A stretch of 64,000 nt of DNA from Chloroflexota bacterium (GTDB lineage: Bacteria > Chloroflexota > UBA11872), in assembly GCA_022824865.1 (NCBI GenBank), contig JAJDZD010000072.1, positions 70,848 to 134,847 on the forward strand, in the 5' to 3' direction. The notes beneath the pieces were generated by a model. It was given only the letters and a program-made list of their open reading frames with translations, was not told the DNA's origin and did not search any database. The stretch's first letter is position 1. Each line of letters opens with the position of its first letter. A program made the translations under genes and the position numbers. Of this stretch, positions 810 to 43,936 are shown in pieces.

Positions 810-3800
810 TTCACGCGCAACTGCACCGGGCCGAGTAATCCCGAAACCAGGGACTCGGCTTCAATGTTGTCCTCGTGCCAGTAGCGGTGCCATGCGTTCC
901 CCATCTTCGTCTCGTCCCGCTTCCAGCGCATTTCGTTGGCGTAGAGGTTGCTTACGCGAACCCGCAGACTATTGGATCCGGTCTGCACAAACCCGCTGAG
1001 GTCGAAGCGGTAGGGCGGCCATAGTCGCACGTCCACCCGCCGATTGTTGACCAGGACTTCGGCATGATGGCGCACGTCGCCGAGGTCCAGCGTCACCTCC
1101 GAATTCGCTTGCTCGGCCGTGAGCTCAAAGCTGCGCTCATAGATGCCGGTGCCGGAATACCAGCCGTATCCAAAGTCCGCCCACGGTTGCAGGGCAATGG
1201 TCGTTGGCCGCGTGAACAGCTCCAGCGGCGCCAAGATGCCGTTGGAGAAGTCGGCCGCCTCAATCTCGACGGTGAGCGTTCGACCGGTGGTGATGTTGTA
1301 AATGCCCTGGATGTCGGGCGTGCGTTCGCGCACGTCCACGTACACCTTGTGGGTGCCCTTGATGTTGGGGATGCCGATTCCAACGCACCCGGCCGGCAGG
1401 CGCTGTCGGTACACGAGCGTGCGGGGAAATGCGACCGGCTCGCCCAGCAGTGGAATGTGCCGCCACGGCTCGACGGGTGGACGTCCCCGCTCCCAGATCG
1501 CCAACGGAGTGTCGCGCTCAAAGGCCAGGCCTGACCACACCTCGGTTGGCGGGGCCTGCACGTCCCACGATTCATCGGACACGATGACGATGGAGCCACC
1601 CGAGCGCAGATCCACCTGGCCCTCGAACAGGAATGAAATCGGCTGGTCGGACACGCACTCCACGTCGGCGACGATGGTGTTCTGGCCCGGCCTGAGGTAG
1701 GGCATGATGTTGTAGGTGACAGGGCTAGACCAGTCCTCGGACTCGCCGAGTTGGGTGCCGTTCATATACACGGTCACTCGGTCCACACCCACGAATGTGG
1801 CCCATGCCTTGATTGGCGGCTCAGTGATTTCGATCGACCGCCGGAACCGCAGACGCCGGTGCTGGTCACTCTTACGCTTGACGGCCCAGCCCCCGTGCTT
1901 GTGGACGCCAGTGATCCAGCTGGCCCGCCAGTTGCCAATGGTGTCGGCCCCCGCCCGCACTAACCAAGTCTCCGGCCAGTCGGCATCGTCGAATTGCGGA
2001 TCGCGCAACTGCTCCAAGCGGCTCGCCCCCAACGAAAAGCTGGCGACTCGCATGACGGGCAACTCGAACCGTCGAATCGAACCCTGACCAGTCGGGGTCC
2101 CACCGCCCAATGCGAAGGTCCAGTCCGTCTTGAAGTCCAGATCCTTGGTCGGCGTCTTCTTGGGCCGTGAGACCCGACTGCGCGAGGCGCGGACGGACGT
2201 GTCGAACACGACGAAGCGAGCGGTGCGCGGAGGAAGCTCAAGCGTGAAGCGACGCTTCCCGCGCGAGCCGGTCGTCGGCAGCGCGGTGGTCTCACCGGTC
2301 TCCGGGTTCCAGACCTCGGGGCGGCCGGGCACGTCGGTGCTAACCGTGGGCGTTGTGTCCACAGCCGAGCGGTTGACGACCATCAAAACCTCGGCGCCGT
2401 CCAGCCGCCGTGGAACGACAAGCACGTCAGCCTCGCTGTCGACCTTGGTCCCCGGAGCCACGATTTCGGCGACGCACTCAAGCGTCTCTGGAAGTGACTC
2501 GGGGACCCGGAATGTCCGGCCCTTGCCAACAGCCGCGCCCGTGGGCGTGGCTGAGGCCTTCCCAAAGAGCGTTCCAACGGCCCGTGTAATCGAGCGGTGC
2601 TTCCAACCCCCGCTGCTGCTGCCGGAAGGACACTCGCCCACCACAATGAGATCGCCGCCCGAACGCACAAACGCGCCCAGGCGGCGCATTGCCTGTGGGC
2701 TGATGACGGGGGTTGGCGGCATAACCAGGGTCGTGATGGTGAGCGCACCCTGCCGGAGGCGGCCGTTTTCGAGGCGCGCGTTCCCATGGCTAATGAACCG
2801 TTCGTCCACGATCTGCACGTCGATGCTGAGGTCGGTCAGACCGTCGATGAGCCCCTCGTACGCCTCCGCGATTTCCCGCGCTCGCGCGTTGGGCCGGCCG
2901 TCCGCGGTATTGGCGGCAATGCTGGTCCACGGGTACAGCACGCCGACGGTGGTTGCGGATCTGGAATGGCCCACTACCGCCGACAGGCGGGCCACGTAGT
3001 CCGACAGACCCTTGAAGTGAGACCAGTACGGATTCTGGTGGCCAAAACTCGGCGGCCAATCGTCGGCCGCCTCGGCGGTGGCCATGGAGTAGAAGAGCCC
3101 GTGGAGCACCAGCATGTTGACGCCGTAGGCGGCCAGCAAGTTGGCGCCGTGCCGAATCTCGTCCAGCGTGACGCCCCAGCCGGCACCGCCGAAGGCCTCC
3201 GCCATCACGCGCGGCCGCCCCGTCATGGCCGCGACCGACACGGCCGGTTTGACCTCGGCCGCTTGCACGGTTCGCGGTCGGGCGTAGCGGAAGCCGTGGT
3301 GATCGGTGCCCGGGATCGTGAGATGGCGCAGGCCGCGGAAGTAGTCGCCTTGCCGGGTCGGATGGGAGGCCACATGCTCTTCGGTGTGACCCGTCCACTC
3401 CAGGCCGTGGCGTTGGCACCACGCGCTGATCTGCGCGAACCACGCCTCCTCGTACAGCGCGGCCACGGTGTCGTAGAAGTCACAGCGGACCTTGACGGTG
3501 TTGTTCCCACCCCGCAGCACCAGCAGCGGGAGTGAGGTCAGCAGGTCGTACCCCTTGTCCTGCTCGAAGCGCGCCGGCAGATCGTCGGTCCAGGGCAGCG
3601 GCTCCGCCGTGATGTAGGGCTCGTCGAAGAAGACCCCGGGAATACCGTCGCCGAAGGCGGCCTGGTGGCGCTGGGCGTAGCCCTCGTAGGCGATATCGAG
3701 GAAGGCCTTCACCGTTGCCGGCCGCAGGTAGTCGATGCGGTCCTCGATCGTGCGGACGGCGAAGCTGAGGACGCGCCATGTCCCTTCCGGGCACTCCCAG

Positions 3801-32423: not shown

Positions 32424-32472
32424 CCGCCCCCTCCGCGTCCGCATCCTTGACTCTCGTAGGGGCGCGGTCTCT

Positions 32473-32603
32473 GAGCCTGTTTCATAAGTCGCTCAACCCG
32501 GCGAATTCATGGGTCGACAGGCTCGCCACGAATGGTCCTGAACCTGTAACGCTCGTCCAGAGCTTGTCGAAGGACGAGATTTGGCGACTTATGAAACACC
32601 CTC
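32473..32603. mobile_element. 131-bp MITE-like non-autonomous derivative of the IS at 37998-39667
   Basis: Left end GAGCCTGTTTCATAAG. Right end CTTATGAAACACCCTC, the degenerate inverted copy. Flanked by TCTCT on both sides. Inserted in the loop of a REP-like hairpin (gggcgcggtctct / ctctgacccgccc). Confidence 0.55.
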
Positions 32604-32829
32604 TCTCTGACCCGCCCGTCTTCCTCCACCCTTCTCCGCACTCCCTCTTTGCTCTCACCGCCCACTCCTCTCAGCTCACTCCTTCCTCACCCCCCGTTCG
32701 TGATGATCCTGTCCTGAGCCTGCCGAAGTGGCCGGCCCGGAGTCCTCGGAATGCCGTGTCGAACCATCCCTGTCATTCCGACGGTCCCCCGAGGAATCTC
32801 GACTTTTCCCCTCCCCCTCCTCCTCTTTC

Positions 32830-34284
32830 TCACTGCTCTCCCCTCTTCCCTCTCCCCTTCCCCGGAACAAACATCCCATGCGGCTGCCCAACCACCAGCC
32901 CGCCGTCCCGGCTGAACCCCTCCGGCCGCTCCGCAAGCTCTTGCGCCAACCGCCCTCGCCAGGGCGCAAGACTCGCTTCTGAAGCCAAATCCCGCTCCTC
33001 GTTCGGATCGTCCACCACGTCAAACAAATGCTCCTCGCCCGTCTGGCTGAACCAGATGTACTTATGCCGCTCGTTCACAATCCAGTGATTCCCGTCCGCC
33101 TCCCGGTACTGGCCCGCATGCTCCCCGTGCAGCACGTCCCGCCATTCCGGCGTTTCGCCGCGCATCCACGGCAGCACACTCCGACCCGTCACCGACTCGG
33201 GAATCTCACAGCCCGCCGCGTCCAGCAGCGTCGGCATCACGTCCTGCAGCCCCACCGGCGCCGCCACCTCGACTTGCCTCGGCAACCCCATCGACCGCGG
33301 CGCCCGCGCCAGGAACGGGACGCGGACCGAGGCCTCATACGGCCACGTCTTCGCGAATAGGTGATGATCCCCCAGCATCTCCCCGTGATCCGACACGAAC
33401 ATGATGAACGTGTCGTACAGCAACCCGCGGTCGCGCATGTACTGGAACAGCCGGTTCAACTGCATGTCCACGTGATTCACCAGCCCGTAATAGCCCGCCC
33501 GGCAGTGATGCATCGGCGCCGCGTCCAGGTGCAGCCGTCGGCTCCACCGCTCCATGTCCTCCGAAAGCTCCGGATCCATCCCGCGCCGCGGCCCCTCAAA
33601 CGGCGGAACCCAGTCCCCAACCACCGGTTCCGGCAAATCCATGCGCTCGTACCGGTCAAAGAAGAACGATGGCGGCGTAAACGGCGGATGCGGGTCCATG
33701 AACGACACGTTCAGAAAAAACGGTGCCGTCGGATCGCGCGTTTCCAGGAAATCGATCGCGCGCGACACCGTCCAGAATGTCAGCGTCTTCTCCTCCGGCA
33801 AGTGCGTCGGACGGCCGATCCATCCGTTGGAAGGCGCCCCATTTGCCATCGCCCAGCGGTGCGGCGGAGCCTCGCCGCGCAGCCACGTCAGGTAATCGTT
33901 GTCGCGGCCGCGCGAGCTCTCCGCCAGGTCCATCGCGTCAAAGCCGAATCGGCGCCGCGTCGGTTGCAGGTGCAGCTTGCCGCACAGGTGCGTTTCGTAG
34001 CCCGCGTCTCGCAACTCCCCCGCCAGCGTCGCCGGCGGATCCCACTCCGGATGCCCGGTCATCCCCACCATCCCGTTCGCCGAGGGCGCCTGCCCCGACA
34101 TCAGCACCCGGCGCGCCGGAACGCACGACGGACACTCCGAATACCCGCGCCGGAAATGCGTCCCCGAAGCCCCGATCCAATCCATCGCCGGCGTCTCCAA
34201 CACCGGATGCCCATCCAACCCCAGCGCATCTCCCCGCTGCTGATCCGTCACAACCAACAAAACATTCGGCCGCCCCTCACCCAT
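32830..34284 (-). CDS. Sulfatase (arylsulfatase family), copy 1
   Basis: Start ATG 34284 with a GGAAGGAG RBS. Sulfatase motif SCVPARRVLMSGQ (C-x-P-x-R) and VLLVVTDQQRGD. About 90% identical to 36419-37876. Confidence 0.8.
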   Translation of the reverse strand: MGEGRPNVLLVVTDQQRGDALGLDGHPVLETPAMDWIGASGTHFRRGYSECPSCVPARRVLMSGQAPSANGMVGMTGHPEWDPPATLAGELRDAGYETHLCGKLHLQPTRRRFGFDAMDLAESSRGRDNDYLTWLRGEAPPHRWAMANGAPSNGWIGRPTHLPEEKTLTFWTVSRAIDFLETRDPTAPFFLNVSFMDPHPPFTPPSFFFDRYERMDLPEPVVGDWVPPFEGPRRGMDPELSEDMERWSRRLHLDAAPMHHCRAGYYGLVNHVDMQLNRLFQYMRDRGLLYDTFIMFVSDHGEMLGDHHLFAKTWPYEASVRVPFLARAPRSMGLPRQVEVAAPVGLQDVMPTLLDAAGCEIPESVTGRSVLPWMRGETPEWRDVLHGEHAGQYREADGNHWIVNERHKYIWFSQTGEEHLFDVVDDPNEERDLASEASLAPWRGRLAQELAERPEGFSRDGGLVVGQPHGMFVPGKGRGKRGEQ

Positions 34285-34365
34285 CACCCCTACTCCTTCC
34301 CCGTCCAACCCTCACGACTCCCCCCACCACAAACCCTATACCCCCATCCGGCCCCTCTTTCGTAC

Positions 34366-34386
34366 GGGCGGGTCTCTGACCCGCCC
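34366..34386. repeat. REP-like perfect hairpin GGGCGGGTC-TCT-GACCCGCCC (intact copy)
   Basis: 9-bp stem and 3-nt loop, followed by the conserved GTCTTCCGCTCGTGATC tail. The same unit recurs at 36169-36189 and, interrupted, at 32459-32616 and 37985-39680. Confidence 0.7.
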
Positions 34387-34642
34387 GTCTTCCGCTCGTG
34401 ATCTACTGGCCGCCCCCGCATATTTCGTACAGACCGCCTTTCGATCCCGCCCGTCGTCCTCTTCCTCTTCCTCGGCCACCCGCGAATCATTACCCTCTCC
34501 TGGGAGACCTTTGCAAAACGCCTCTCGACCTCGAAAATGTGTCCGCTCTTAATCCCTCTCCTGGGGGAGAGGGTTGGGGTGAGGGGTCTTCCGCGCAACC
34601 AACGATGGGTTACGCAAAGGTCTCATTAGGGAGAGATATGTC

Positions 34643-36127
34643 GTGAGCCACACGCCCGCAAACGCGCGCAGCCCCAACGTCCTCATCGTCCTCTGCGACC
34701 AGCTCCAACGCGACTTCGTCGGCGCCTACGGCCATCCCCTCGCCCACACCCCCAACATCGACCGCCTGGCTGCCCGCGGCGTCAAGCTCGCCCATGCCTA
34801 CGTGCCCAAGCCCCAGTGCGCCCCTGCCCGCGCCTCCATGTTCACCGGCCGCTATCCCCACCAGCACCAGCTCATGATGAACAACGCCGCCATCACCTGG
34901 CAGACCCCCGTCGGCCCCCTCGCCAACCGCCCCGACCTGCCCGAGACTGTCCCCTCCCTCGGCCAGGCCTTCCAGGCCGCCGGCTACCGACTCGGCTACA
35001 CCGGCCCCTGGCACATGGGCAACGACGAAACCCCCCAGCACGGCTTCACCGACTTCTGGCGCACCTATCGCTACTGGCAAGACGGCCGCGACTACTACGT
35101 CCAGTACCTGGAAAAGCTCGGCCTGGACCAACTATTTCACGACGAGCATCAGCGCGCCAACATGGCCCGCGCCGCCCGCACCGATCACGCCCAGCCGTCC
35201 ATGGCCACCGAGATCCCAACGGAGCACACCCGCACCGCCTGGGCCGTCAGGCAGACCCTGGAGTTCCTCGATAGCGCCGACACCCGCCCCTGGCTCTTCT
35301 GCTGCTCCATCAAAGACCCCCATCCCCCCGTCCTGCCGCCCCCCGAATTCGCCGACCTCGTCTCACCCGACGACGTCCGCTTCGTCCCCTCCTGGGTCGA
35401 CGACCTCTCGGACAAACCCGCCCTCCAGCGCGACTCCGCCAGCGTCCGCTGGACCTCCTACATGACCGACGACCAGTGGCGTCAATACATCGCCCACTAC
35501 CACGGCCTCAACGCCCACATCGACACCGAAGTCGGTCGGCTACTACAGGGCCTCGACCAGCGCGGCCTCACCGGCAACACCCTCGTCATCTTCCTCTCCG
35601 ACCACGGCGAAATGATGGGCTCCCACCACATGGCCCACAAAGGCCCCTACATGTACGAAGACGTCTACGCCATCCCCTTCATCGCCCACTGGCCCGGCCA
35701 TGTCGAAGGCGGCCGTACCCACCCCGACCTCTTCTCCACCGTCGACTTCACCCCCTCCCTCGGCGCCCTCTGTGGCGTGCCCGTCGATGCCGGCGCCGGC
35801 CTCGACCAGTCCGCCGTGCTCACCGATGGCGAGACGGGCCCCCGCGACGCCATCTTCGCCGAGTTCTACGGCCAGGGCTCCGAGGCCGAACGCGGCCTCA
35901 TGGCCATCAAATCCATCCGCACCCACGACTGGAAACTCAACATCTACCTCAACGACCGCTCCGAGCTCTACCACCTCGCCACCGACCCCCACGAACTCAC
36001 CAACCTCATCGACCACCCCGACCACCAGGCCACCAAACGCCACCTCGCCCACCGCATCCTCCACTGGCTCCGCCAAACCGACGACCCCCTAACCGAGGTC
36101 TTCGCCAACGAAGCCGTATCCACCTAG
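34643..36127 (+). CDS. Sulfatase (arylsulfatase family), distinct subfamily
   Basis: GTG start 34643 with a GGGAGAG RBS. PQCAPARASMFTGRYP (C-x-P-x-R), VLIVLCDQLQRD, DHGEMMGSHH. Confidence 0.85.
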   Translation: MSHTPANARSPNVLIVLCDQLQRDFVGAYGHPLAHTPNIDRLAARGVKLAHAYVPKPQCAPARASMFTGRYPHQHQLMMNNAAITWQTPVGPLANRPDLPETVPSLGQAFQAAGYRLGYTGPWHMGNDETPQHGFTDFWRTYRYWQDGRDYYVQYLEKLGLDQLFHDEHQRANMARAARTDHAQPSMATEIPTEHTRTAWAVRQTLEFLDSADTRPWLFCCSIKDPHPPVLPPPEFADLVSPDDVRFVPSWVDDLSDKPALQRDSASVRWTSYMTDDQWRQYIAHYHGLNAHIDTEVGRLLQGLDQRGLTGNTLVIFLSDHGEMMGSHHMAHKGPYMYEDVYAIPFIAHWPGHVEGGRTHPDLFSTVDFTPSLGALCGVPVDAGAGLDQSAVLTDGETGPRDAIFAEFYGQGSEAERGLMAIKSIRTHDWKLNIYLNDRSELYHLATDPHELTNLIDHPDHQATKRHLAHRILHWLRQTDDPLTEVFANEAVST

Positions 36128-36418
36128 CACGTCAAGTCAGAACCCCGCCCTGATTCCGTCTGTCGTAGGGGCGGGTCCTCGACCCGCCCGTCTTCCGCGC
36201 AACCACCAGCCCCTACCCATTCGTGGTGAGCCGGTCCGCTGCCGTGTGGCCCAGGCTGCGCCCAACCTGGGACCCTCCGCCGGGGACCACACCCCCGCAC
36301 TACCCAACCCACCCCGCCAATCCCCCTCCGTCATCCCGGCGTCCCCAGAGAGCCTGCCCTGAGCTTGCCGAAGAGCCTGCCCTGAGCCTGTCGAAGGGGG
36401 ATCCAGTCTTCCTCCCCT

Positions 36419-37876
36419 CTAACTCCTCTTCCCTCTCCCCTCTCCCTTTCCGCCCGGAACAAACATCCCATGCGGCTGCCCAACAACCAGGCCACCGTCC
36501 CGGCTAAACCCCTCCGGCCGATCCGCCAGCTCCTCCGCTAACCGCCCCCGCCACGGACCAAGATCGGTGTTTGGTGCCAGATCCCGCTCCTCATTCGGAT
36601 CCTCCACCACGTCAAACAAATGCTCCTCGCCCGTCTGGCTGAACCAGATGTACTTGTGCCGCTCATTCACGATCCAGTGATTCCCGTCCGCCTCCCGGTA
36701 CTGCCCCGCGTGCTCCCCGTGCAGCACGTCGCGCCACTCCGGTGATTCCCCACGCATCCACGGCAGCACGCTGCGACCCGTCACCGATTCCGGAATCTCA
36801 CAGCCCGCCGCATCCAGCAGCGTCGGCATCACGTCCTGCAGACCCACCGGCGCCGCCACCTCCACCTGGCTGGGGAATCCCATCGACCGCGGCGCCCGCG
36901 CCAGGAACGGCACCCGAACCGACGCCTCGTACGGCCACGTCTTTGCGAATAAGTGGTGATCGCCCAGCATCTCCCCGTGATCCGACACAAACATGATGAA
37001 CGTGTCATACAGCAAGCCCTTATCCCGCATGTACTGGAACAACCGGTTCAGCTGCATGTCCACGTGATTCACCAGCCCGTAATAGCCCGCCCGGCAGTGG
37101 TGCATCGGCGCCGGGTCCAGGTGCAGTCGACGGCTCCATCGCTCGGTGTGCTCGGAAAGCTCCGGATCCATCCCGCGCCGCGGCCCCGGGAACTCCGGCA
37201 CCCAGTCGCCAATCACCGGCTCCGGCAGGTCCATGCGCTCATACCGGTCGAAAAAGAACGCCGGCGGCGTAAACGGCGGATGCGGATCCATGAACGAGAC
37301 GTTCAGGAAGAACGGCGCCGTCGGATCGCGCCTCTCAAGGAAGTCGATTGCTCGCGACACCGTCCAGAACGTCTGCGTTTTCTCCTCCGGCAGATGCGTC
37401 GGACGTCCGATCCATCCGTTCGAGGGCGCCCCATGGGCCATCGCCCAGCGGTGCGGCGGCGCCTCGCCCCGCAGCCACGTCAGGTAATCGTTGTCCAGGG
37501 TGCGCGAGCTGTTCGCCAGGTCCATCGCCTCAAACCCAAAGCGCCGCCGCGTCGGTTGCAGGTCCAGCTTGCCGCTCATGTGTGTTTCATAGCCCACGTC
37601 GCGCAACTCGCCTGCCACCGTCGCCGCCGGATCCCATTCCGGGTGCGAGATCATCCCCGCCATCCCGTTCGCCGACGGCGCCTGCCCCGACATCAGCACC
37701 CGGCGCGCCGGAGCACACGACGGATACTCCGTGTACCCCCGCCGGAAATGCGTCCCCGAAGCCCCAATCCAATCCATCGCCGGCGTCTCCAGCACCGCAT
37801 GCCCATCCAACCCCAGCGCATCCCCCCGCTGCTGATCCGTCACAATCAACAAGACATTCGGCTGCCCCTCACCCAT
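36419..37876 (-). CDS. Sulfatase, copy 2 (paralog of 32830-34284)
   Basis: Start ATG 37876 (MGEGQPNVLLIVTDQQRGD). SCAPARRVLMSGQ motif. The flanking non-coding sequence is also duplicated. Confidence 0.8.
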   Translation of the reverse strand: MGEGQPNVLLIVTDQQRGDALGLDGHAVLETPAMDWIGASGTHFRRGYTEYPSCAPARRVLMSGQAPSANGMAGMISHPEWDPAATVAGELRDVGYETHMSGKLDLQPTRRRFGFEAMDLANSSRTLDNDYLTWLRGEAPPHRWAMAHGAPSNGWIGRPTHLPEEKTQTFWTVSRAIDFLERRDPTAPFFLNVSFMDPHPPFTPPAFFFDRYERMDLPEPVIGDWVPEFPGPRRGMDPELSEHTERWSRRLHLDPAPMHHCRAGYYGLVNHVDMQLNRLFQYMRDKGLLYDTFIMFVSDHGEMLGDHHLFAKTWPYEASVRVPFLARAPRSMGFPSQVEVAAPVGLQDVMPTLLDAAGCEIPESVTGRSVLPWMRGESPEWRDVLHGEHAGQYREADGNHWIVNERHKYIWFSQTGEEHLFDVVEDPNEERDLAPNTDLGPWRGRLAEELADRPEGFSRDGGLVVGQPHGMFVPGGKGEGRGKRS

Positions 37877-37997
37877 CACCCCTACTCCTTCCCCATCCAA
37901 CCCTCGCCAATCCCCCACCACAAACCCTATACCCCCATCCGTTCGTGGTGAGCCCTGTCGAACCACCCGGCCCCTATCTTCGTAGGGGCGGGTCTCT

Positions 37998-39667
37998 GAG
38001 CCTGTTTCATAAAGTGGGTGGTGTTGCGTGACGGCGCCGCCGGCCAGCGGGCCGGCGTGGGTGGAGGTGAGGGGGTATGCCGCATCGACCGATGAGCCGC
38101 GAGCAGCAATGGCTGCTGCCTCCGAGCCTGGACGAGCTGGTGCCGGCCGATCATCCGGCCCGCTTCGTGGCCGAGTTCGTCGATGCCCTCGACGGCGGCG
38201 CCTGGGCTGCCATGGGCATCGACCTCGCCGGGGATCCCCTGGGCGCGCCGGCCTACCACCCGCGGGCGCTGCTGAGTGTCTGGGTGTACGGCTTCATGAC
38301 CGGGGTCCGGTCGAGTCGGAAGTTGGAGGCGGCCTGCCGGGAGCAACTGCCGTACCTGTGGCTGACGGGGTGCCAGACGCCGGATCACATCACCTTGTGG
38401 CGGTTCTACGCCGTCCATCGAGCCGGGATGCGGCAGCTGTTCACGCGCACGGTCCGGATGGCGCTGCGGCTGCAGCTGGTGGCGTTGGCGGTGCAGGCCG
38501 TGGACGGCACCAAAGTCGACGCCAACGCCAGCGGGGCCCGGACCTACGATTCGGCGGGGCTGCGCCGGCTGCTGGACCGGGTGGAGGGCGCGATCGACGA
38601 CCTGGAAGCGCAGCACGAAGCGGGCGACGAGCCGCGGCCAGCCCGGCTGCCGGCGGCCTTGGCCACCCGGCGGCGGTTACGCACGCAGGTGCGGACGGCC
38701 CTCGCGACGCTGGACCAGCCCACGTCGCCCACGCGGATCAATCTGACCGATGCGGACGCGCCGCTGATGAAGACGCGGCAGGGGGTGCGGCCGGCCTACA
38801 ACGCCCAGGCGATGGTCGCGCCGGTGGCCCGGGGGGCCGCGGGCGGCGGCCGCCTGATCACCGCGGTCGCGGTGGTGGATGACCCGGCCGATGCGGCGCA
38901 GTTGCCGCCCATGCTGGCGCAGGCCGAGGCCGCGACCGGTACGCCAGCGGACCTGACGGTGGCCGATGCGGGCTATCACTCGGGGGCGGCGCTGGCGGCC
39001 TGTGCGCGCCGCGGCCACCGCGTGGCCATGCCGGAGGCGCAGGCGCGGGCCCTGCAGCAGCCGTATCACAAGGACCGCTTCAGCTACGAGGCGGCGCGCG
39101 ACCGCTATCGCTGTCCGGCCGGGCAGTGGCTGCGCTTCACGCGCACGAAGACCACGCAGGGCACCGCCATGCGGCTCTACCGGGCCTCCGGGGCCGTCTG
39201 CCGGGCCTGTCCGGCCTTCGGAATCTGTACGACCGACGGGCGGCATGGACGCGGCTTGGAAATCGGGCCGCACGACGCCCTGCTACGGCGGCATCGGGCC
39301 TGGATGGCCACGCGCGCGGCCCAGCACTGGGTAGCGCAGCGCCCGGCCCTCGTCGAACCCGTCTTCGGCATCATCAAAGACCAGCAAGGGGCTCGCCGCT
39401 TCCTGCTGCGCGGGCTGGCCAATGTCAAGGCCGAGTGGGCCCTGCTCGCCACCGCCTTCAACCTGCGCACGCTCTGGCGGCTCTGGCGGGCGCCACCCAC
39501 CGAACCCGCCGGGTGGGATGCGGCGATGACCACCGCTGGCGCGCCCGCCTAGCCCCCGGTGACGCCTCAGCGCGTCGGCGCAGCCTCGTCACATCGCCGG
39601 AAGCCACCCGTCCAGGCCGCACGATGGCGTGAGCCTGCCCCCTGAATACGCCTAATGAAACAGGCTC
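37998..39667 (+). mobile_element. IS element (1670 bp), IS5/IS1182-family, with 13-bp terminal inverted repeats and 4-bp CTCT target-site duplication
   Basis: TIR GAGCCTGTTTCAT at 37998-38010 and its reverse complement ATGAAACAGGCTC at 39655-39667. CTCT at 37994-37997 and 39668-39671. Removing the element plus one CTCT regenerates the REP hairpin GGGCGGGTCTCTGACCCGCCC. Confidence 0.7.
38077..39552 (+). CDS. DDE transposase, IS5/IS1182 family (DUF772-type N-terminus)
   Basis: 491 aa. N-terminal LPPSLDELVPADHPARFV and WLTGCQTPDHITLWRF. DDE region with DAGYHS. C-terminal LLRGLANVKAEWALLATAFNLRTL is typical of this family. Confidence 0.8.
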   Translation: MPHRPMSREQQWLLPPSLDELVPADHPARFVAEFVDALDGGAWAAMGIDLAGDPLGAPAYHPRALLSVWVYGFMTGVRSSRKLEAACREQLPYLWLTGCQTPDHITLWRFYAVHRAGMRQLFTRTVRMALRLQLVALAVQAVDGTKVDANASGARTYDSAGLRRLLDRVEGAIDDLEAQHEAGDEPRPARLPAALATRRRLRTQVRTALATLDQPTSPTRINLTDADAPLMKTRQGVRPAYNAQAMVAPVARGAAGGGRLITAVAVVDDPADAAQLPPMLAQAEAATGTPADLTVADAGYHSGAALAACARRGHRVAMPEAQARALQQPYHKDRFSYEAARDRYRCPAGQWLRFTRTKTTQGTAMRLYRASGAVCRACPAFGICTTDGRHGRGLEIGPHDALLRRHRAWMATRAAQHWVAQRPALVEPVFGIIKDQQGARRFLLRGLANVKAEWALLATAFNLRTLWRLWRAPPTEPAGWDAAMTTAGAPA

Positions 39668-40001
39668 CTCTGACCCGCCCGTCTTCCGCTCGTGATCGAC
39701 GGGCCGCCCCCGCCTCTTTCGCAGGCGCGTCATCTCCGACCCGCCCGTCTTCCTCTTCCTCCGCCATCCCGGCGTCTCCGGCCGGGACCCAGCAGCACCC
39801 AACAACCCGAACGCATCCAAGCCATCCCTGGCAACCCACCCAGACCAAATGCTCCCAACCGTCCCCTCCGCCTCCCACTACTCACTGCTCTCCGCTCACT
39901 CCCTCCCCACCCGCCATCGCCCTGTCCCACGCCGCCGTCATCGGCGACGGTGACCGCCGACGCTACAATCGGATCACCGGACGGGTCACTGGAGAGCTTC
40001 A

Positions 40002-40298
40002 ATGGATGTACGCGAGGCTGCACGCACAGCCAAGACGTATATCGCCAATGTCTTTGCCGACGAGGCTATTGATGAAGTCGGACTCGAGGAAGTCGACTTT
40101 GACGACCATTCGAATCTCTGGAAGATAACCATCAGCTTCCTGCGTCCCAGGGGCGAAATGGACAGATTCCAGGCTGCGGCATCAGGCTATCCGGCCGGTA
40201 CCCCCACAATGCGTCGTTCCTTCAAGGTTGTGAACATCGACGACGGGTCCGGCAGCGTCGTTTCCGTCAAGCACCGGGTGGTGGAAGGCGCCGACTGA
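40002..40298 (+). CDS. Small acidic hypothetical protein (98 aa), upstream partner of a PIN-like gene
   Basis: GGAGAG RBS. Highly acidic (ADEAIDEVGLEEVDFDDHS). Ends 4 nt before the next ORF. No known family recognised. Confidence 0.5.
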   Translation: MDVREAARTAKTYIANVFADEAIDEVGLEEVDFDDHSNLWKITISFLRPRGEMDRFQAAASGYPAGTPTMRRSFKVVNIDDGSGSVVSVKHRVVEGAD

Positions 40299-40302
40299 CT
40301 CG

Positions 40303-40761
40303 TTGCCCGCCGCATGCTATCTCGACGCCAATCTGCTCGTGCTCCTCGTTGTCGGCGCCACGGATCAAGCCCTGGTACGTAGGCATCGTCGCCTGCAAGC
40401 ATTCGACCCTGATGACTATGAGCTTCTGGTCGAATTGCTCGGGAATTACCCGCAAGTACTGGTAACGCCAAATACACTCACCGAAACGTCCAATCTGCTA
40501 AGTCAACATGCCGAACCCCAGCGATCCAGGTTCTTTGAAACGTTCCGATCACTAATCGAAATCAACAAGGAAATAGTCGTGGAAAGCCGGCAAGCCTCAG
40601 GAAACGCATCTTTCAAGCGCCTGGGACTGACCGATGCCGCGCTTCTTGAGGTAGTCACCGCGGACACCCCGCTGATCACGGTGGACCTGGACTTATACGT
40701 GGCAGCCTTAGCAAAGTCGCCAGGTGCAGCCATAAACTTCACGCATCTCCAGCACCTCTAG
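40303..40761 (+). CDS. PIN-like domain protein
   Basis: CYLDANLLVLL (beta1 Asp), then LTETSN, LTDAALLEV and ITVDLDLYVAA acidic positions, consistent with a divergent PIN fold. Confidence 0.5.
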   Translation: MPAACYLDANLLVLLVVGATDQALVRRHRRLQAFDPDDYELLVELLGNYPQVLVTPNTLTETSNLLSQHAEPQRSRFFETFRSLIEINKEIVVESRQASGNASFKRLGLTDAALLEVVTADTPLITVDLDLYVAALAKSPGAAINFTHLQHL

Positions 40762-40987: not shown

Positions 40988-43936
40988 ATGCCCCGCACCG
41001 CCGAACACACCGTCAACGTCGAACTCGCCCGCCTCCTGCGCACTAGGCACCCGCGTTGGCGCAACGGCATCGGCGTTGAACAGACCGGCGTGCTGGCCGA
41101 CGCCCCCGCCCAGCGCCCCGACATCCTCATCCAGCATCCCGGCGGCCTGCCCGTCGTCATCGAGACCGAGTACCGCCCGGCTCGCGAAGTTGAACAGGAC
41201 GCCAGCAGCCGCCTCGGCGCGGTCGTCGCGGCCACCGGCGAAGCAATAGAGCAAGCCGTCGCCCTCCGCGTGCCCGTGGAACTCCGCGGCGTCAACCAGG
41301 CCCAACTGCCCCAACGCGTCGCCGAGGCCGCCTTCGACTACTGCGTCTTCACCGAGGGTGCCGAAGGCCCCGACCGCTGGCCCGCCAGCGGCTGGCTTAC
41401 CGGCGGCGTCGACGACCTCGCCGGCTTCATTGAACACACCGCCCTATCGGAGCGCCGCATCGCCCGCGGGACCTTAATTCTTGAAGTCGGCGTTCGTCAG
41501 GCCGCGGGTCGTCTTGAGGCCATGCTGCTAGAACCGGAAGGGATATTGGGCCGACGAGCGGCCGTCCTGCACCAGCAGCCCGGAGAGCAAACCGAGCGCA
41601 TGGCCATGGCGATCGTGGCCAACGCCATGACCTTTCACGCCACGCTCGTCGCAGCCAAGCTTGATGTCCGCTCGTTCGACGATCTGCGCCGGGATTCCTC
41701 GCTCAACCGTCTGAGCCGATCCATAGTCCTCGGGGAATGGCGCCGAATCCTCAGGGAGATCAACTACTGGCCGATCTTCCGGATTGCCGATGAGCTCATG
41801 TCGCCGGTCTCGGCCCGCGAAGCCTCGTCAATCCTCGAGCACTTGGCCAAAGTCGCCGACGAGCTGCACCAAATCGGCACGTCCACCACCCACGACCTCT
41901 CCGGCCAGATGTTCGGCCGTCTGATTACGGACCGGAAGTTCCTGGCCACCTTCTACACGCTTCCTGCCTCCGCCTCGCTACTGGCCGAACTGGCGGCGAC
42001 TCGTCTCGAAGTCGATTGGGCGGATTCCGTAGCTTTCACCGACCTGCGGATTGCCGATCTGGCCTGCGGCACCGGTGCCCTGCTGGCCTCGGCTTACCGC
42101 GCGGTGGCGTCCCGCCATCGCCGCGCCGGCGGCGACGATGCTCCGCTCCACGCAACCATGATGGAGCACTCACTCATCGGTGCCGACATCATGCCGGCCG
42201 CCTCCCACCTCACCGCCTCCACGCTCTCCAGCGCGCATCCCGGTGTGCCGTTTGATCGTACCCGCATACACACCATGCCCTACGGCGACCCAGAGCCTGA
42301 CGATCCCAGCGGGCGCGGTACCGCCATCGGCTCCCTGGATCTGATCCTCAGCGACGCCCAGCCGTCCCTCTTCGGTACCGGCCAGCACGCCGTCCGGGGC
42401 CGCGACCCGTCCCTAAGCGCCGAATCCTCGCCGGCGCATGTGCGGCAGGGCGACGAACTTCATGTGCCCCAGGGCTCGGTTGATCTCATGATCATGAATC
42501 CACCGTTCACCAGCCCGACAAATCACGCAGCGCAAAATAATGTCCCGATACCTTCGTTTGCTGGATTCGCCACCGGCGAGGACGAACAGCGAAGGATGTC
42601 GGAGGTACTCCGAGAGATTCGGAGGTGCCTGGAGCATCCTGTAGGTCACGGCAACGCCGGCCTCGCTTCCAACTTCATTGACCTCGCACACGCGAAGACA
42701 AAGCCGGGCGGGGTGCTCGCCCTTGTCTTGCCGCTGGCGGTGGTCTCAGGAAGCGCATGGTCATCGGCGCGGCGGATGCTGGCCCGCGACTACAGCGATC
42801 TGATAATCGTCACGATCGCGGCCGTCGGTGACACTGATCGTGCGTTCTCGTCGGACACCAGCATCGGCGAGGCGCTCGTTGTCGCAACACGGCGGGATGG
42901 CCCGGTCCACACAGACGAATCTGCGGCCGAAACGCTCTATGTGAGTCTCGGCAGGCGACCGCAGAGTCTGGCTGAGGCATCAGAGATCGCCCGCGCGGCT
43001 CGTTGTCTGCCAGATTCAGGTGGCGGGCTCTTTCAAATCGGTGACGAGACAGTCGGCTGTTTCATCCGCGCCACACTTGCTGACAGCGGATGCGCTGCGG
43101 TGCGTGAGCCGGGTGTCGCACAAGCTGCGCTTGCGGTGAGAGAGGGCTCGTTGCGCCTGCCTCGTATGCGCGAGGCGCACTCTTTGCCAATAGCTCTGCT
43201 GGCTGAACTTGGCCACCGCGGGCTGGTTCACCGCGACATCAACGGTAGAAACTCTGACGGTTCTCCCCGTGGCCCCTTCGATGTCATGCCGCGACTCGGC
43301 GCGGCGTCGGCGTACCCAATGCTCTGGCAACACGGCGCTAAACGTGAGCGGCGGCTCCGCGTAGAACCGGATACGGAGGGCCGCGTTCGGCAAGACTGTG
43401 AAACCAAAGCCATTGACGTATGGGAAACAGCAACTCGGCTCCATTTGACCCTGGACTTCCGCCTCAACTCGCAAAGCTTGGCCGTCTGCCTCACCCCCGA
43501 ACCTTCGATCGGAGGCCGAGCCTGGCCTAACTTTCGGCTATTGAACGCCGCAGGCGAAGAGGCGGTCGCGCTCTGGGCGAACAGCACCTTGGGACTGATG
43601 AGCTTTTGGTTGACTGGCGGGCGCCAGCAGCAGGGTCGCTCGATCATGACCATTTCTCAGTTGCCCGAACTGCCAACACTCGACGTACGCCAACTCAGCA
43701 TGGAACAGATCGAGCGATCCCACCGCATCTTCGCCGACTTCCTCGACTATGAATTCCTCCCCGCCAACGAGGCCTACCACGACCCTGTCCGCCAGGCACT
43801 CGACCAGGCCGTCCTCATCGACCTCCTCGGCCTCCCCGAATCCATCCTCGATCCCCTCGCCCTCCTCCGCCTTCAATGGTGCGCCGAACCCACCGTCCAC
43901 GGCGGCAAATCCACTAAGCCCCCTGAGCTACCGTAG
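40988..43936 (+). CDS. Large N6-adenine DNA methyltransferase fused to an HSDR_N-like nuclease-fold N-terminal domain (Type IIG/IIL-like single-chain restriction-modification candidate, 982 aa)
   Basis: N-terminal RPDILIQHPGGLPVVIETEY resembles the HSDR_N PD-(D/E)xK-fold domain, but the Lys is replaced. Motif I LRIADLACGTGALL. Motif IV VDLMIMNPPFTSPT (NPPF). I-then-IV order indicates gamma class. About 450 aa of C-terminal domain could be a target-recognition domain. Confidence 0.65.
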   Translation: MPRTAEHTVNVELARLLRTRHPRWRNGIGVEQTGVLADAPAQRPDILIQHPGGLPVVIETEYRPAREVEQDASSRLGAVVAATGEAIEQAVALRVPVELRGVNQAQLPQRVAEAAFDYCVFTEGAEGPDRWPASGWLTGGVDDLAGFIEHTALSERRIARGTLILEVGVRQAAGRLEAMLLEPEGILGRRAAVLHQQPGEQTERMAMAIVANAMTFHATLVAAKLDVRSFDDLRRDSSLNRLSRSIVLGEWRRILREINYWPIFRIADELMSPVSAREASSILEHLAKVADELHQIGTSTTHDLSGQMFGRLITDRKFLATFYTLPASASLLAELAATRLEVDWADSVAFTDLRIADLACGTGALLASAYRAVASRHRRAGGDDAPLHATMMEHSLIGADIMPAASHLTASTLSSAHPGVPFDRTRIHTMPYGDPEPDDPSGRGTAIGSLDLILSDAQPSLFGTGQHAVRGRDPSLSAESSPAHVRQGDELHVPQGSVDLMIMNPPFTSPTNHAAQNNVPIPSFAGFATGEDEQRRMSEVLREIRRCLEHPVGHGNAGLASNFIDLAHAKTKPGGVLALVLPLAVVSGSAWSSARRMLARDYSDLIIVTIAAVGDTDRAFSSDTSIGEALVVATRRDGPVHTDESAAETLYVSLGRRPQSLAEASEIARAARCLPDSGGGLFQIGDETVGCFIRATLADSGCAAVREPGVAQAALAVREGSLRLPRMREAHSLPIALLAELGHRGLVHRDINGRNSDGSPRGPFDVMPRLGAASAYPMLWQHGAKRERRLRVEPDTEGRVRQDCETKAIDVWETATRLHLTLDFRLNSQSLAVCLTPEPSIGGRAWPNFRLLNAAGEEAVALWANSTLGLMSFWLTGGRQQQGRSIMTISQLPELPTLDVRQLSMEQIERSHRIFADFLDYEFLPANEAYHDPVRQALDQAVLIDLLGLPESILDPLALLRLQWCAEPTVHGGKSTKPPELP

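Follow-up and report, generated by a model that had tools for sequence, protein, structure and literature searches.

An IS1182-family insertion sequence splitting a REP-type hairpin in the 5′ flank of a duplicated sulfatase gene in a Chloroflexota genome, and the hairpin preference of its relatives

The stretch of DNA analysed here (the window) comprises 64,000 nucleotides of a Chloroflexota bacterium of the GTDB lineage UBA11872 (GenBank assembly GCA_022824865.1, contig JAJDZD010000072.1, positions 70,848 to 134,847), and carries a cluster of three sulfatase genes at 32830-37966 which is followed by a 1670-bp insertion sequence (IS) at 37998-39667 on the plus strand. The same region, between 32 and 40 kb, contains every copy that the window has, four well-preserved and approximately two degenerate, of a small GC-rich hairpin of the repetitive extragenic palindromic (REP) type, and two of the four good copies (32456, 34366, 36169 and 37982) are split, one by the IS and one by a 131-bp MITE (miniature inverted-repeat transposable element). 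Comparison of this locus with its paralogous and orthologous counterparts and with related elements leads us to conclude, with high confidence, that a single intact IS1182-family element integrated at the dyad of a hairpin of the REP type, which lies upstream of sulfatase copy 2, and that this choice of target is a property of the clade to which the element belongs.

The IS starts with GAGCCTGTTTCAT and, as read from 37900-39760, finishes with ATGAAACAGGCTC; its left terminal inverted repeat (37998-38010, plus strand) is GAGCCTGTTTCAT itself, a terminus common to the related loci L002-L004 and L145-L159, and its right terminal inverted repeat (39655-39667, minus strand) is the reverse complement of this sequence, the two repeats being perfect over 13 nt. 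The sole long open reading frame (ORF) of the element, at 38077-39552 on the plus strand, is uninterrupted and specifies a transposase of 491 aa, in which the Pfam domains DUF772, DDE_Tnp_1 and DDE_Tnp_1_6 were detected with E-values of 1.4e-15, 7.8e-10 and 8e-20, respectively. At profile level this combination of an N-terminal DUF772 domain with DDE_Tnp_1/DDE_Tnp_1_6 represents the domain architecture of IS1182 transposases, and the NCBIfam model for the IS1182 family (NF033551) matched the protein with 355.9 bits against a cut-off of 270, along model positions 2-488 of 488. Members of the IS1182 family are single-ORF elements of approximately 1.3-1.95 kb with terminal inverted repeats (the ISfinder range), and the size, single ORF and 13-bp repeats of the present element are in agreement with this. 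The preliminary description had left the choice between IS5 and IS1182 open. On the profile scores the element is assigned to IS1182 and not to IS5, as every IS5 model remained below its cut-off, the best being NF033581 with 49.8 bits against 140, while NF033578 reached 29.4 against 275.

Other copies of the exact IS were sought and none is on record; its transposase forms a singleton cluster at 90% identity and is recorded only at the present locus (L001, from a Logan assembly, represents that same locus), and the exact IS thus appears to be single-copy. The element is probably still functional, because it possesses a full-length ORF, perfect termini and an intact target duplication. The nearest relatives of the transposase (P0002-P0005) are 81-88% identical, followed by a very large family at 62-68%, and full-length elements with 83-86% nucleotide identity to the IS over exactly 37998-39667 are present in L002, L003 and L004.

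The position of the insertion can be established to the base pair. The IS is preceded by GGGCGGGTCTCT at 37986-37997 (GGGGCGGGTCTCT when read from 37985) and followed by CTCTGACCCGCCC at 39668-39680, and the tetranucleotide CTCT is present on both sides, at 37994-37997 and 39668-39671, while empty sites possess it only once. In silico removal of the IS together with one CTCT regains GGGCGGGTCTCTGACCCGCCC, a sequence that has exactly one further match in the window, at 34366-34386, where 0.01 would be expected by chance. The left part of the split hairpin, consisting of a GTAG head and the left arm GGGCGGGTC, lies at 37982-37994, and its right part, consisting of the right arm GACCCGCCC and a conserved tail GTCTTCC, at 39672-39687, both on the plus strand. 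DNA folding predicts that GGGCGGGTC and GACCCGCCC pair as a 9-bp stem closed by a 3-nt loop, TCT, so that CTCT takes in this loop and the adjoining base of the left arm; the target duplication described at the outset is borne out, with one of its bases in the stem. The paralogous hairpin upstream of sulfatase copy 1 (34364-34388, plus strand) is an intact, empty site containing the exact 21-mer within an 11-bp stem (-15 kcal/mol, z -5.9), and across the REP copies the predicted stabilities range from -11.8 to -15 kcal/mol with z-scores of -3.7 to -5.9. A second intact copy, which the preliminary description had taken to be the same 21-mer, lies at 36169-36189 (plus strand) and reads GGGCGGGTCCTCGACCCGCCC, with the arms of the 21-mer and a different loop; the exact restoration of the hairpin and its intact counterpart at 34366 were borne out. 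Downstream of the IS, a degenerate second REP copy, TTTCGCAGGCGCGTCATCTCCGACCCGCCCGTCTTCC, is located at 39717-39753 on the plus strand, in a tandem layout that recurs at 34425-34459 and in L109. The orthologous site in L109 reads ...CTTCGTAGGGGCGGGTCTCTGACCCGCCCGTCTTCC... / ...GTCGAACCACCCGGCCCCTATCTTCGTAGGGGCGGGTCTCTGACCCGCCCGTCTTCCGATCGTGATC... and consists of both window flanks joined through a single CTCT, with the hairpin intact and the IS missing, and the insertion is therefore precise.

The IS lies in the 5′ flank of sulfatase copy 2 (36419-37966, minus strand), its left end being 31 bp upstream of the start of the longest ORF of this gene. Copy 2, which has a Pfam Sulfatase domain, is 91% identical to copy 1 (32830-34308, minus strand), and the 5′ flanks of the two genes can be aligned. 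Two Chloroflexota metagenome-assembled genomes (MAGs), represented by L108 and L109, are syntenic with 32.8-38.0 kb at 92-96% nucleotide identity and contain all three sulfatases; L109, for which the nucleotide identity is 93%, carries both copies of the duplicated gene. Since the orthologous site in L109 is empty while both sulfatase copies are present, the insertion is judged from these alignments to have followed the duplication, as had been anticipated from the window alone, and likewise the divergence from the closest relatives available. Probably, 1.67 kb now separate copy 2 from what used to be its upstream region, and with the IS at a distance of 31 bp the expression of this recently duplicated gene may be altered. 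The three sulfatase genes, including the two paralogues with 91% identity, form a cluster that is conserved in related Chloroflexota MAGs, at no fewer than four loci (L044, L096, L108 and L109). A further small palindromic repeat of variable length, GTTCGTGGTGAGCC...GTGTCGAACCAC, occurs at 37930-37967 and 36208-36240 as well as in L037, L082 and L109, and explains why the 5′ flanks of the sulfatase copies differ by 29 bp.

A second mobile element occupies another copy of the same hairpin. The GAGCCTGTTTCAT terminus recurs at 32473 and, with 2 mismatches, on the opposite strand at 32603, and the sequence between these positions (32473-32603, plus strand) is a non-coding element of 131 bp with termini GAGCCTGTTTCATAAGTCGC and (reverse complement) GAGGGTGTTTCATAAGTCGC, 21-nt inverted repeats that agree at 19 of 21 positions, and a target duplication of TCTCT or CTCT. 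It lies at the apex of its REP, of which the left part (GTAG head, arm and loop) occupies 32456-32472 and the right part (duplicated loop TCTCT, arm and tail) 32604-32624 (both plus strand), and is flanked by GTAGGGGCGCGGTCTCT and TCTCTGACCCGCCCGTCTTCC, such that the hairpin is split where the IS splits its own copy. The termini are identical to the left end of the P0010-type IS (GAGCCTGTTTCATAAGTCGC) over 20 of 20 nt and to the window IS over 15 of 15 nt. Two copies of the element were seen, the other being an 88% identical one in L082 (3794-3963) which is inserted in a different REP, between GTAGTGGCGGCGTCTGA and TCTCAGACCCGCCC, and intact hairpins are present in L111 and L037 at positions near-orthologous to the window site. 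On the strength of its ends the 131-bp element is classed as a MITE of this IS clade. The locus and its relatives provide a precise, internally controlled picture, with paralogous and orthologous empty sites and a MITE at the same hairpin position.

The target hairpin has several features of a REP. In the REP architecture a GC-rich palindrome comes after a GTAG head, and the head was tabulated as GT(A/G)G by Nunvar 2010 (PMC2817692). In the window, the heads next to the stem at 32456, 34361, 36165 and 37982 read GTAG or GTAC, consistent with the heads of PMC2817692 Table 1, and the short GC-rich palindromes have stems of 9-11 bp that form a stable stem-loop; the REP of Haemophilus parasuis, GTAGGGTGGGTCTTGACCCACC (PMC2817692), shares the GTAG head and GC-rich palindrome with the present hairpin, GTAGGGGCGGGTCTCTGACCCGCCC. 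The right half and tail (GACCCGCCCGTCTTCC) occur exactly five times in the window. The abundance of the hairpin elsewhere was determined by scanning public genomes, one per species, for the exact 18-mer GACCCGCCCGTCTTCCKC, which yielded at least 143 right-half matches in at least 120 blocks. Among the matches listed, 80 (57 blocks) combine a left arm that differs by no more than 2 edits with a loop of 2-6 nt, 65 of these 80 hairpin copies have a GT[AG][GC] head, and nearly all hairpin copies belong to Chloroflexota MAGs; at least 14 are present in OZ253587.1, and tandem arrays were found in L090. No Rfam family was found for the hairpin. Taken together, these sequence features identify the target as a REP-type repeat.

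The hairpin also appears to resemble known systems of REPs and REP-associated tyrosine transposases (RAYTs; PMC2817692) in being multi-copy, in occurring in arrays and in flanking genes that resemble Y1 transposases. RAYT-like ORFs flanked by hairpins were found at L090 2885-3571, L074 1820-2563 and L026 4529-5254, following tblastn with a RayT sequence that served as a lead only, the matches being checked with Pfam and NCBIfam. The ORF of L090 matched Pfam Y1_Tnp with 29.2 bits (cut-off 23), and those of L090 and L074 reached 60.9 and 63.9 bits, respectively, with NCBIfam REP_Tyr_transpos, below the cut-off of 80. The same tblastn query found no RAYT-like gene in the window. In contrast to the systems of PMC2817692, the hosts are Chloroflexota MAGs and the RAYT-like proteins, sub-cut-off in NCBIfam, contain inserts that appear REP-derived: in-frame insertions made of repeated GRRAGLRPAPT / EDGRVGDAAPT units, lie between the HUH and tyrosine motifs. 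The RAYT-like gene of L026 is broken into two ORFs, and that of L090 is surrounded by seven REP copies on the minus strand (approximately 2100-3720), arranged as a head-to-tail array with a period of approximately 100 bp. REP-type repeats with RAYT-like genes thus exist in Chloroflexota and serve as landing pads for other mobile DNA, which is relevant to the reading of genome plasticity and of assembly breaks in MAGs.

As the exact IS appears to be single-copy, the check that had been proposed, namely to score the flanks of its genome-wide copies, was run on relatives and the MITE. Relatives at 66-67% amino acid identity are multi-copy and were fetched with their flanks, their ends being mapped by copy-to-copy comparison; a metagenome scan with the transposase protein added 10 short contigs, which were used for ends. 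The terminus motifs of the clade are GAGCCTGTTTCA and GAGCCTGT(T/C)(T/C)CA. A site was scored as an apex insertion when at least 7 pairs of the minimum-energy hairpin enclosed the duplication, and centring was assessed by a dyad search; these measures replaced a gapless 'stem10' score, which was discarded owing to its sensitivity to register shifts of one base. Apex insertions make up 25 of 29 independent sites of related elements, as compared to 272 of 1740 random control windows (16%) from the same loci (Fisher p 2e-16), and the mean DNA folding energy is -10.4 kcal/mol at insertion sites and -4.7 kcal/mol in controls. At each of the ten sites with a strong palindrome, the midpoint of the duplication is no more than 0.5 bp away from the dyad: even palindromes show a 4-bp duplication that is exactly centred, odd ones either 4 bp, half a base off centre, or 5 bp, centred. 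These data uphold the original suggestion that the element targets a structured repeat, and the MITE adds an insertion in another copy of the very hairpin split by the IS.

In the relatives at 66-67% identity nearly all copies lie between the arms of a GC-rich palindrome of which the central 4-5 bp are duplicated, examples being (duplication in brackets) GGGGCGATT[CGCG]AATCGCCCC, GGGGGCGCTT[CACG]AAGCGCCCCC, GGGGCAGGGC[CAAG]CCCTGCCCC, GGGCGGGT[CTGAG]ACCCGCCCC (also given as GGGCGGGT[CTGAG]ACCCGCCCCTACG) and GTAGGGGCACGA[TATA]TCGTGCCCCTAC. Among the closer relatives, the element of L004 is inserted in the same REP family in opposite orientation and that of L003 in a palindrome resembling a degenerate REP, with 5 bp duplicated; the flanks of L161 are palindromic. 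In one sample (ERZ25766727), two contigs (L146 and L150) carry an IS in the hairpin GGGGGCGCTT CACG AAGCGCCCCC, beside a PIN / PSK_trans_fac pair, in opposite orientations, as is expected from symmetric recognition. With regard to unoccupied hairpins, the window contains 20 perfect hairpins whose stems reach 8 bp or more (approximately 9 expected). Occupancy is confined to REP-type hairpins, 18 of these 20 intact hairpins being of another type and carrying no element. A perfect hairpin, CCCTCTCCtgggGGAGAGGG, which has a weak, sub-threshold Rfam match to whalefall-1, lies at 34552-34573 between divergent sulfatases, and the near-same ccctctccCCAAggagaggg is the target of a related IS in L132.

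Several observations weigh against hairpin targeting as a property of the clade. The preference is deduced from relatives and the MITE, there being a single recorded copy of the exact IS, and the activity of the element is deduced from its intactness. L002, with a transposase 81% identical, is in no convincing hairpin, and the P0103 group (64% identical) occupies TGCA/TATA sites, neither of its two independent sites being a hairpin; hairpin targeting is therefore not universal in the IS1182 family. The flanks of L004, L158 and L159 do not match, suggesting later recombination, and the control windows were drawn from intergenic and other DNA alike, while hairpins are enriched in intergenic DNA. 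Moreover, most targets are REPs with a common GTAGGGG head at a constant distance of 8 nt from the duplication, which makes recognition of sequence and of structure inseparable; the differing stem sequences and a few non-REP targets (L130 and L132) nevertheless favour recognition of symmetry or structure. The P0103 element was also found nested at TGCA inside another IS (DDE_Tnp_1_4), in a composite repeated on many contigs (L135-L144).

It could be argued from some of these points that IS and MITE reached their hairpins without any preference, by chance or through selective survival in neutral, REP-rich intergenic DNA, particularly as REP copies are dense at 32-40 kb, intergenic insertions are the most likely to survive, and some relatives (L002 and the P0103 group) lie outside hairpins. 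Survival bias, however, offers no explanation for base-pair precision. Two independent elements of the window occupy the same position in two REP copies, while, elsewhere in the window, 18 perfect hairpins and non-hairpin DNA amounting to tens of kilobases are unoccupied, and both the apex frequency among relatives (25 of 29 sites against 16% of controls) and the placement of the duplication no further than 0.5 bp from the dyad in each of ten strong palindromes speak against untargeted insertion, which we consider very unlikely.

The mutual reverse complementarity of the IS flanks, which resembles longer inverted repeats, would also be expected if the hairpin halves belonged to the element, its inverted repeats extending to GGGCGGGTC.../...GACCCGCCC and the 'empty' hairpins being excision footprints or solo ends. 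Such a reading has next to no probability: in relatives, other palindromes surround the same IS termini, intact hairpins are found that contain a single CTCT and no IS-end sequence, and the hairpin is abundant in genomes, mostly without a nearby IS. Nor is the 131-bp element at all likely to be a REPIN-like unit moved by a RAYT, with a position unrelated to that of the IS. RAYT-like genes do occur in related genomes and the element is flanked by REP sequence, but this sequence is a single REP cut into halves and not a pair of complete inverted REPs, the 21-nt termini match the ends of clade ISs (the P0010-type left end and the window IS), and a duplication of 4-5 bp at the loop, as here, is characteristic of DDE insertion; we therefore regard this origin as highly improbable.

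Targeted integration at the dyad by elements of this clade could be accounted for by a mechanism of symmetric docking followed by dyad-spanning cuts, which we consider most likely. Clade elements with the GAGCCTGT(T/C)(T/C)CA terminus, including the 131-bp MITE, integrate at the centre of GC-rich palindromes, mostly REPs of differing stems, and the duplicated 4-5 bp are centred on the dyad. A two-fold symmetric DDE transpososome would dock on the palindrome, be it an extruded hairpin, a cruciform or a symmetric duplex, and would make staggered cuts 4 bp, and sometimes 5 bp, apart across the dyad, leaving the hairpin arms to flank the element. We suggest more tentatively, and with more doubt than conviction, that the clade may read the hairpin dyad by shape and not by sequence, with a stagger that fits the parity of the palindrome, and that the Chloroflexota clade may be specialised on RAYT-maintained REPs. 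If this were so, three mobile systems (REP/RAYT, IS1182 and MITE) would be layered on one 21-nt hairpin, IS1182 would bring the number of REP-targeting IS families to six, and the elements would constitute a natural dataset on the recognition of DNA structure by DDE transposases.

The targeting of palindromes by some IS1182 members has been reported (Siguier 2015, as cited in PMC5678879 and PMC4923244), and the variable direct repeats and palindromic targets ascribed to them there are matched by the present elements, with duplications of 4 bp for the IS and 4-5 bp for its relatives. Like IS1272/TnSha1, IS1182-family elements of Staphylococcus, the present clade uses hairpin or inverted-repeat targets with little conservation of primary sequence (PMC4923244, PMC5678879). 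IS1272, however, replaces or partly deletes its target hairpin without a duplication, whereas here both arms are kept and 4-5 bp at the apex are duplicated; moreover, the targets of IS1272 are terminators in Staphylococcus, while those described here are REPs in Chloroflexota. Duplication of the loop only was drawn as theoretical pathway c in PMC5678879, to which the present elements conform. The structure-directed target choice of DDE transposases is poorly understood, and the published evidence for IS1182 is thin, consisting of one target-deleting staphylococcal element and a review remark, against which the present set offers approximately 25 independent apex insertions in hairpins of differing stem sequence.

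IS1397 and ISKpn1, two IS3-family elements of the Enterobacteriaceae, insert in the loop with a short duplication. They resemble the present clade in that their insertion is specific to REP/palindromic units belonging to bacterial interspersed mosaic elements (PMC1525189), and differ in their transposase, which is unrelated and encoded by two ORFs joined by frameshifting. ISPpu9, ISPpu10, ISPa11 and IS621 of the IS110 family likewise have all or nearly all copies within REPs (PMC1525189, PMC12288879). In contrast to the dyad-centred DDE integration of the present IS, IS110-family elements employ DEDD recombinases and are without terminal inverted repeats or a typical duplication, and their targeting is sequence-guided by a bridge RNA (bioRxiv 10.64898/2026.03.19.712850). 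In the survey of PMC1525189, REP targeting is documented for the IS3, IS110, IS4, IS256 and IS5 families and not for IS1182, in keeping with the earlier remark that this behaviour is known for a few IS families. If a REP-targeting IS is understood as one with most copies at a fixed REP position, the term applies to the clade and not to the single-copy IS of the window. Hairpin targeting in IS1182 and REP targeting in other IS families were thus already known; the element described here is a well-supported further case of both, and what it contributes is a new host phylum, a MITE partner and unusually clean dyad-centring data.

A second repeat motif, GAGCCTGCCCTGAGC(C/T)TG(C/T)CGAA, is present as a tandem duplicate at 36340-36400 and also in L015, L020, L048, L100, L110 and L118, and in other Chloroflexota loci it stands directly upstream of REP hairpins (GTAGAGCCTGCCCTGAGCTTGTCGAAxGGGGGCGG...). 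The motif and the IS terminus have GAGCCTGT in common, and the MITE contains similar GAGC(C/T)TGTCGA(A/C) blocks. Close to the IS on its downstream side, 40002-40761 and 40988-43936 contain two small adjacent ORFs of 98 and 152 aa followed by an ORF of 982 aa. A Pfam search gave no match for any of the three; judged by eye, the 152-aa product resembles a PIN-like toxin.

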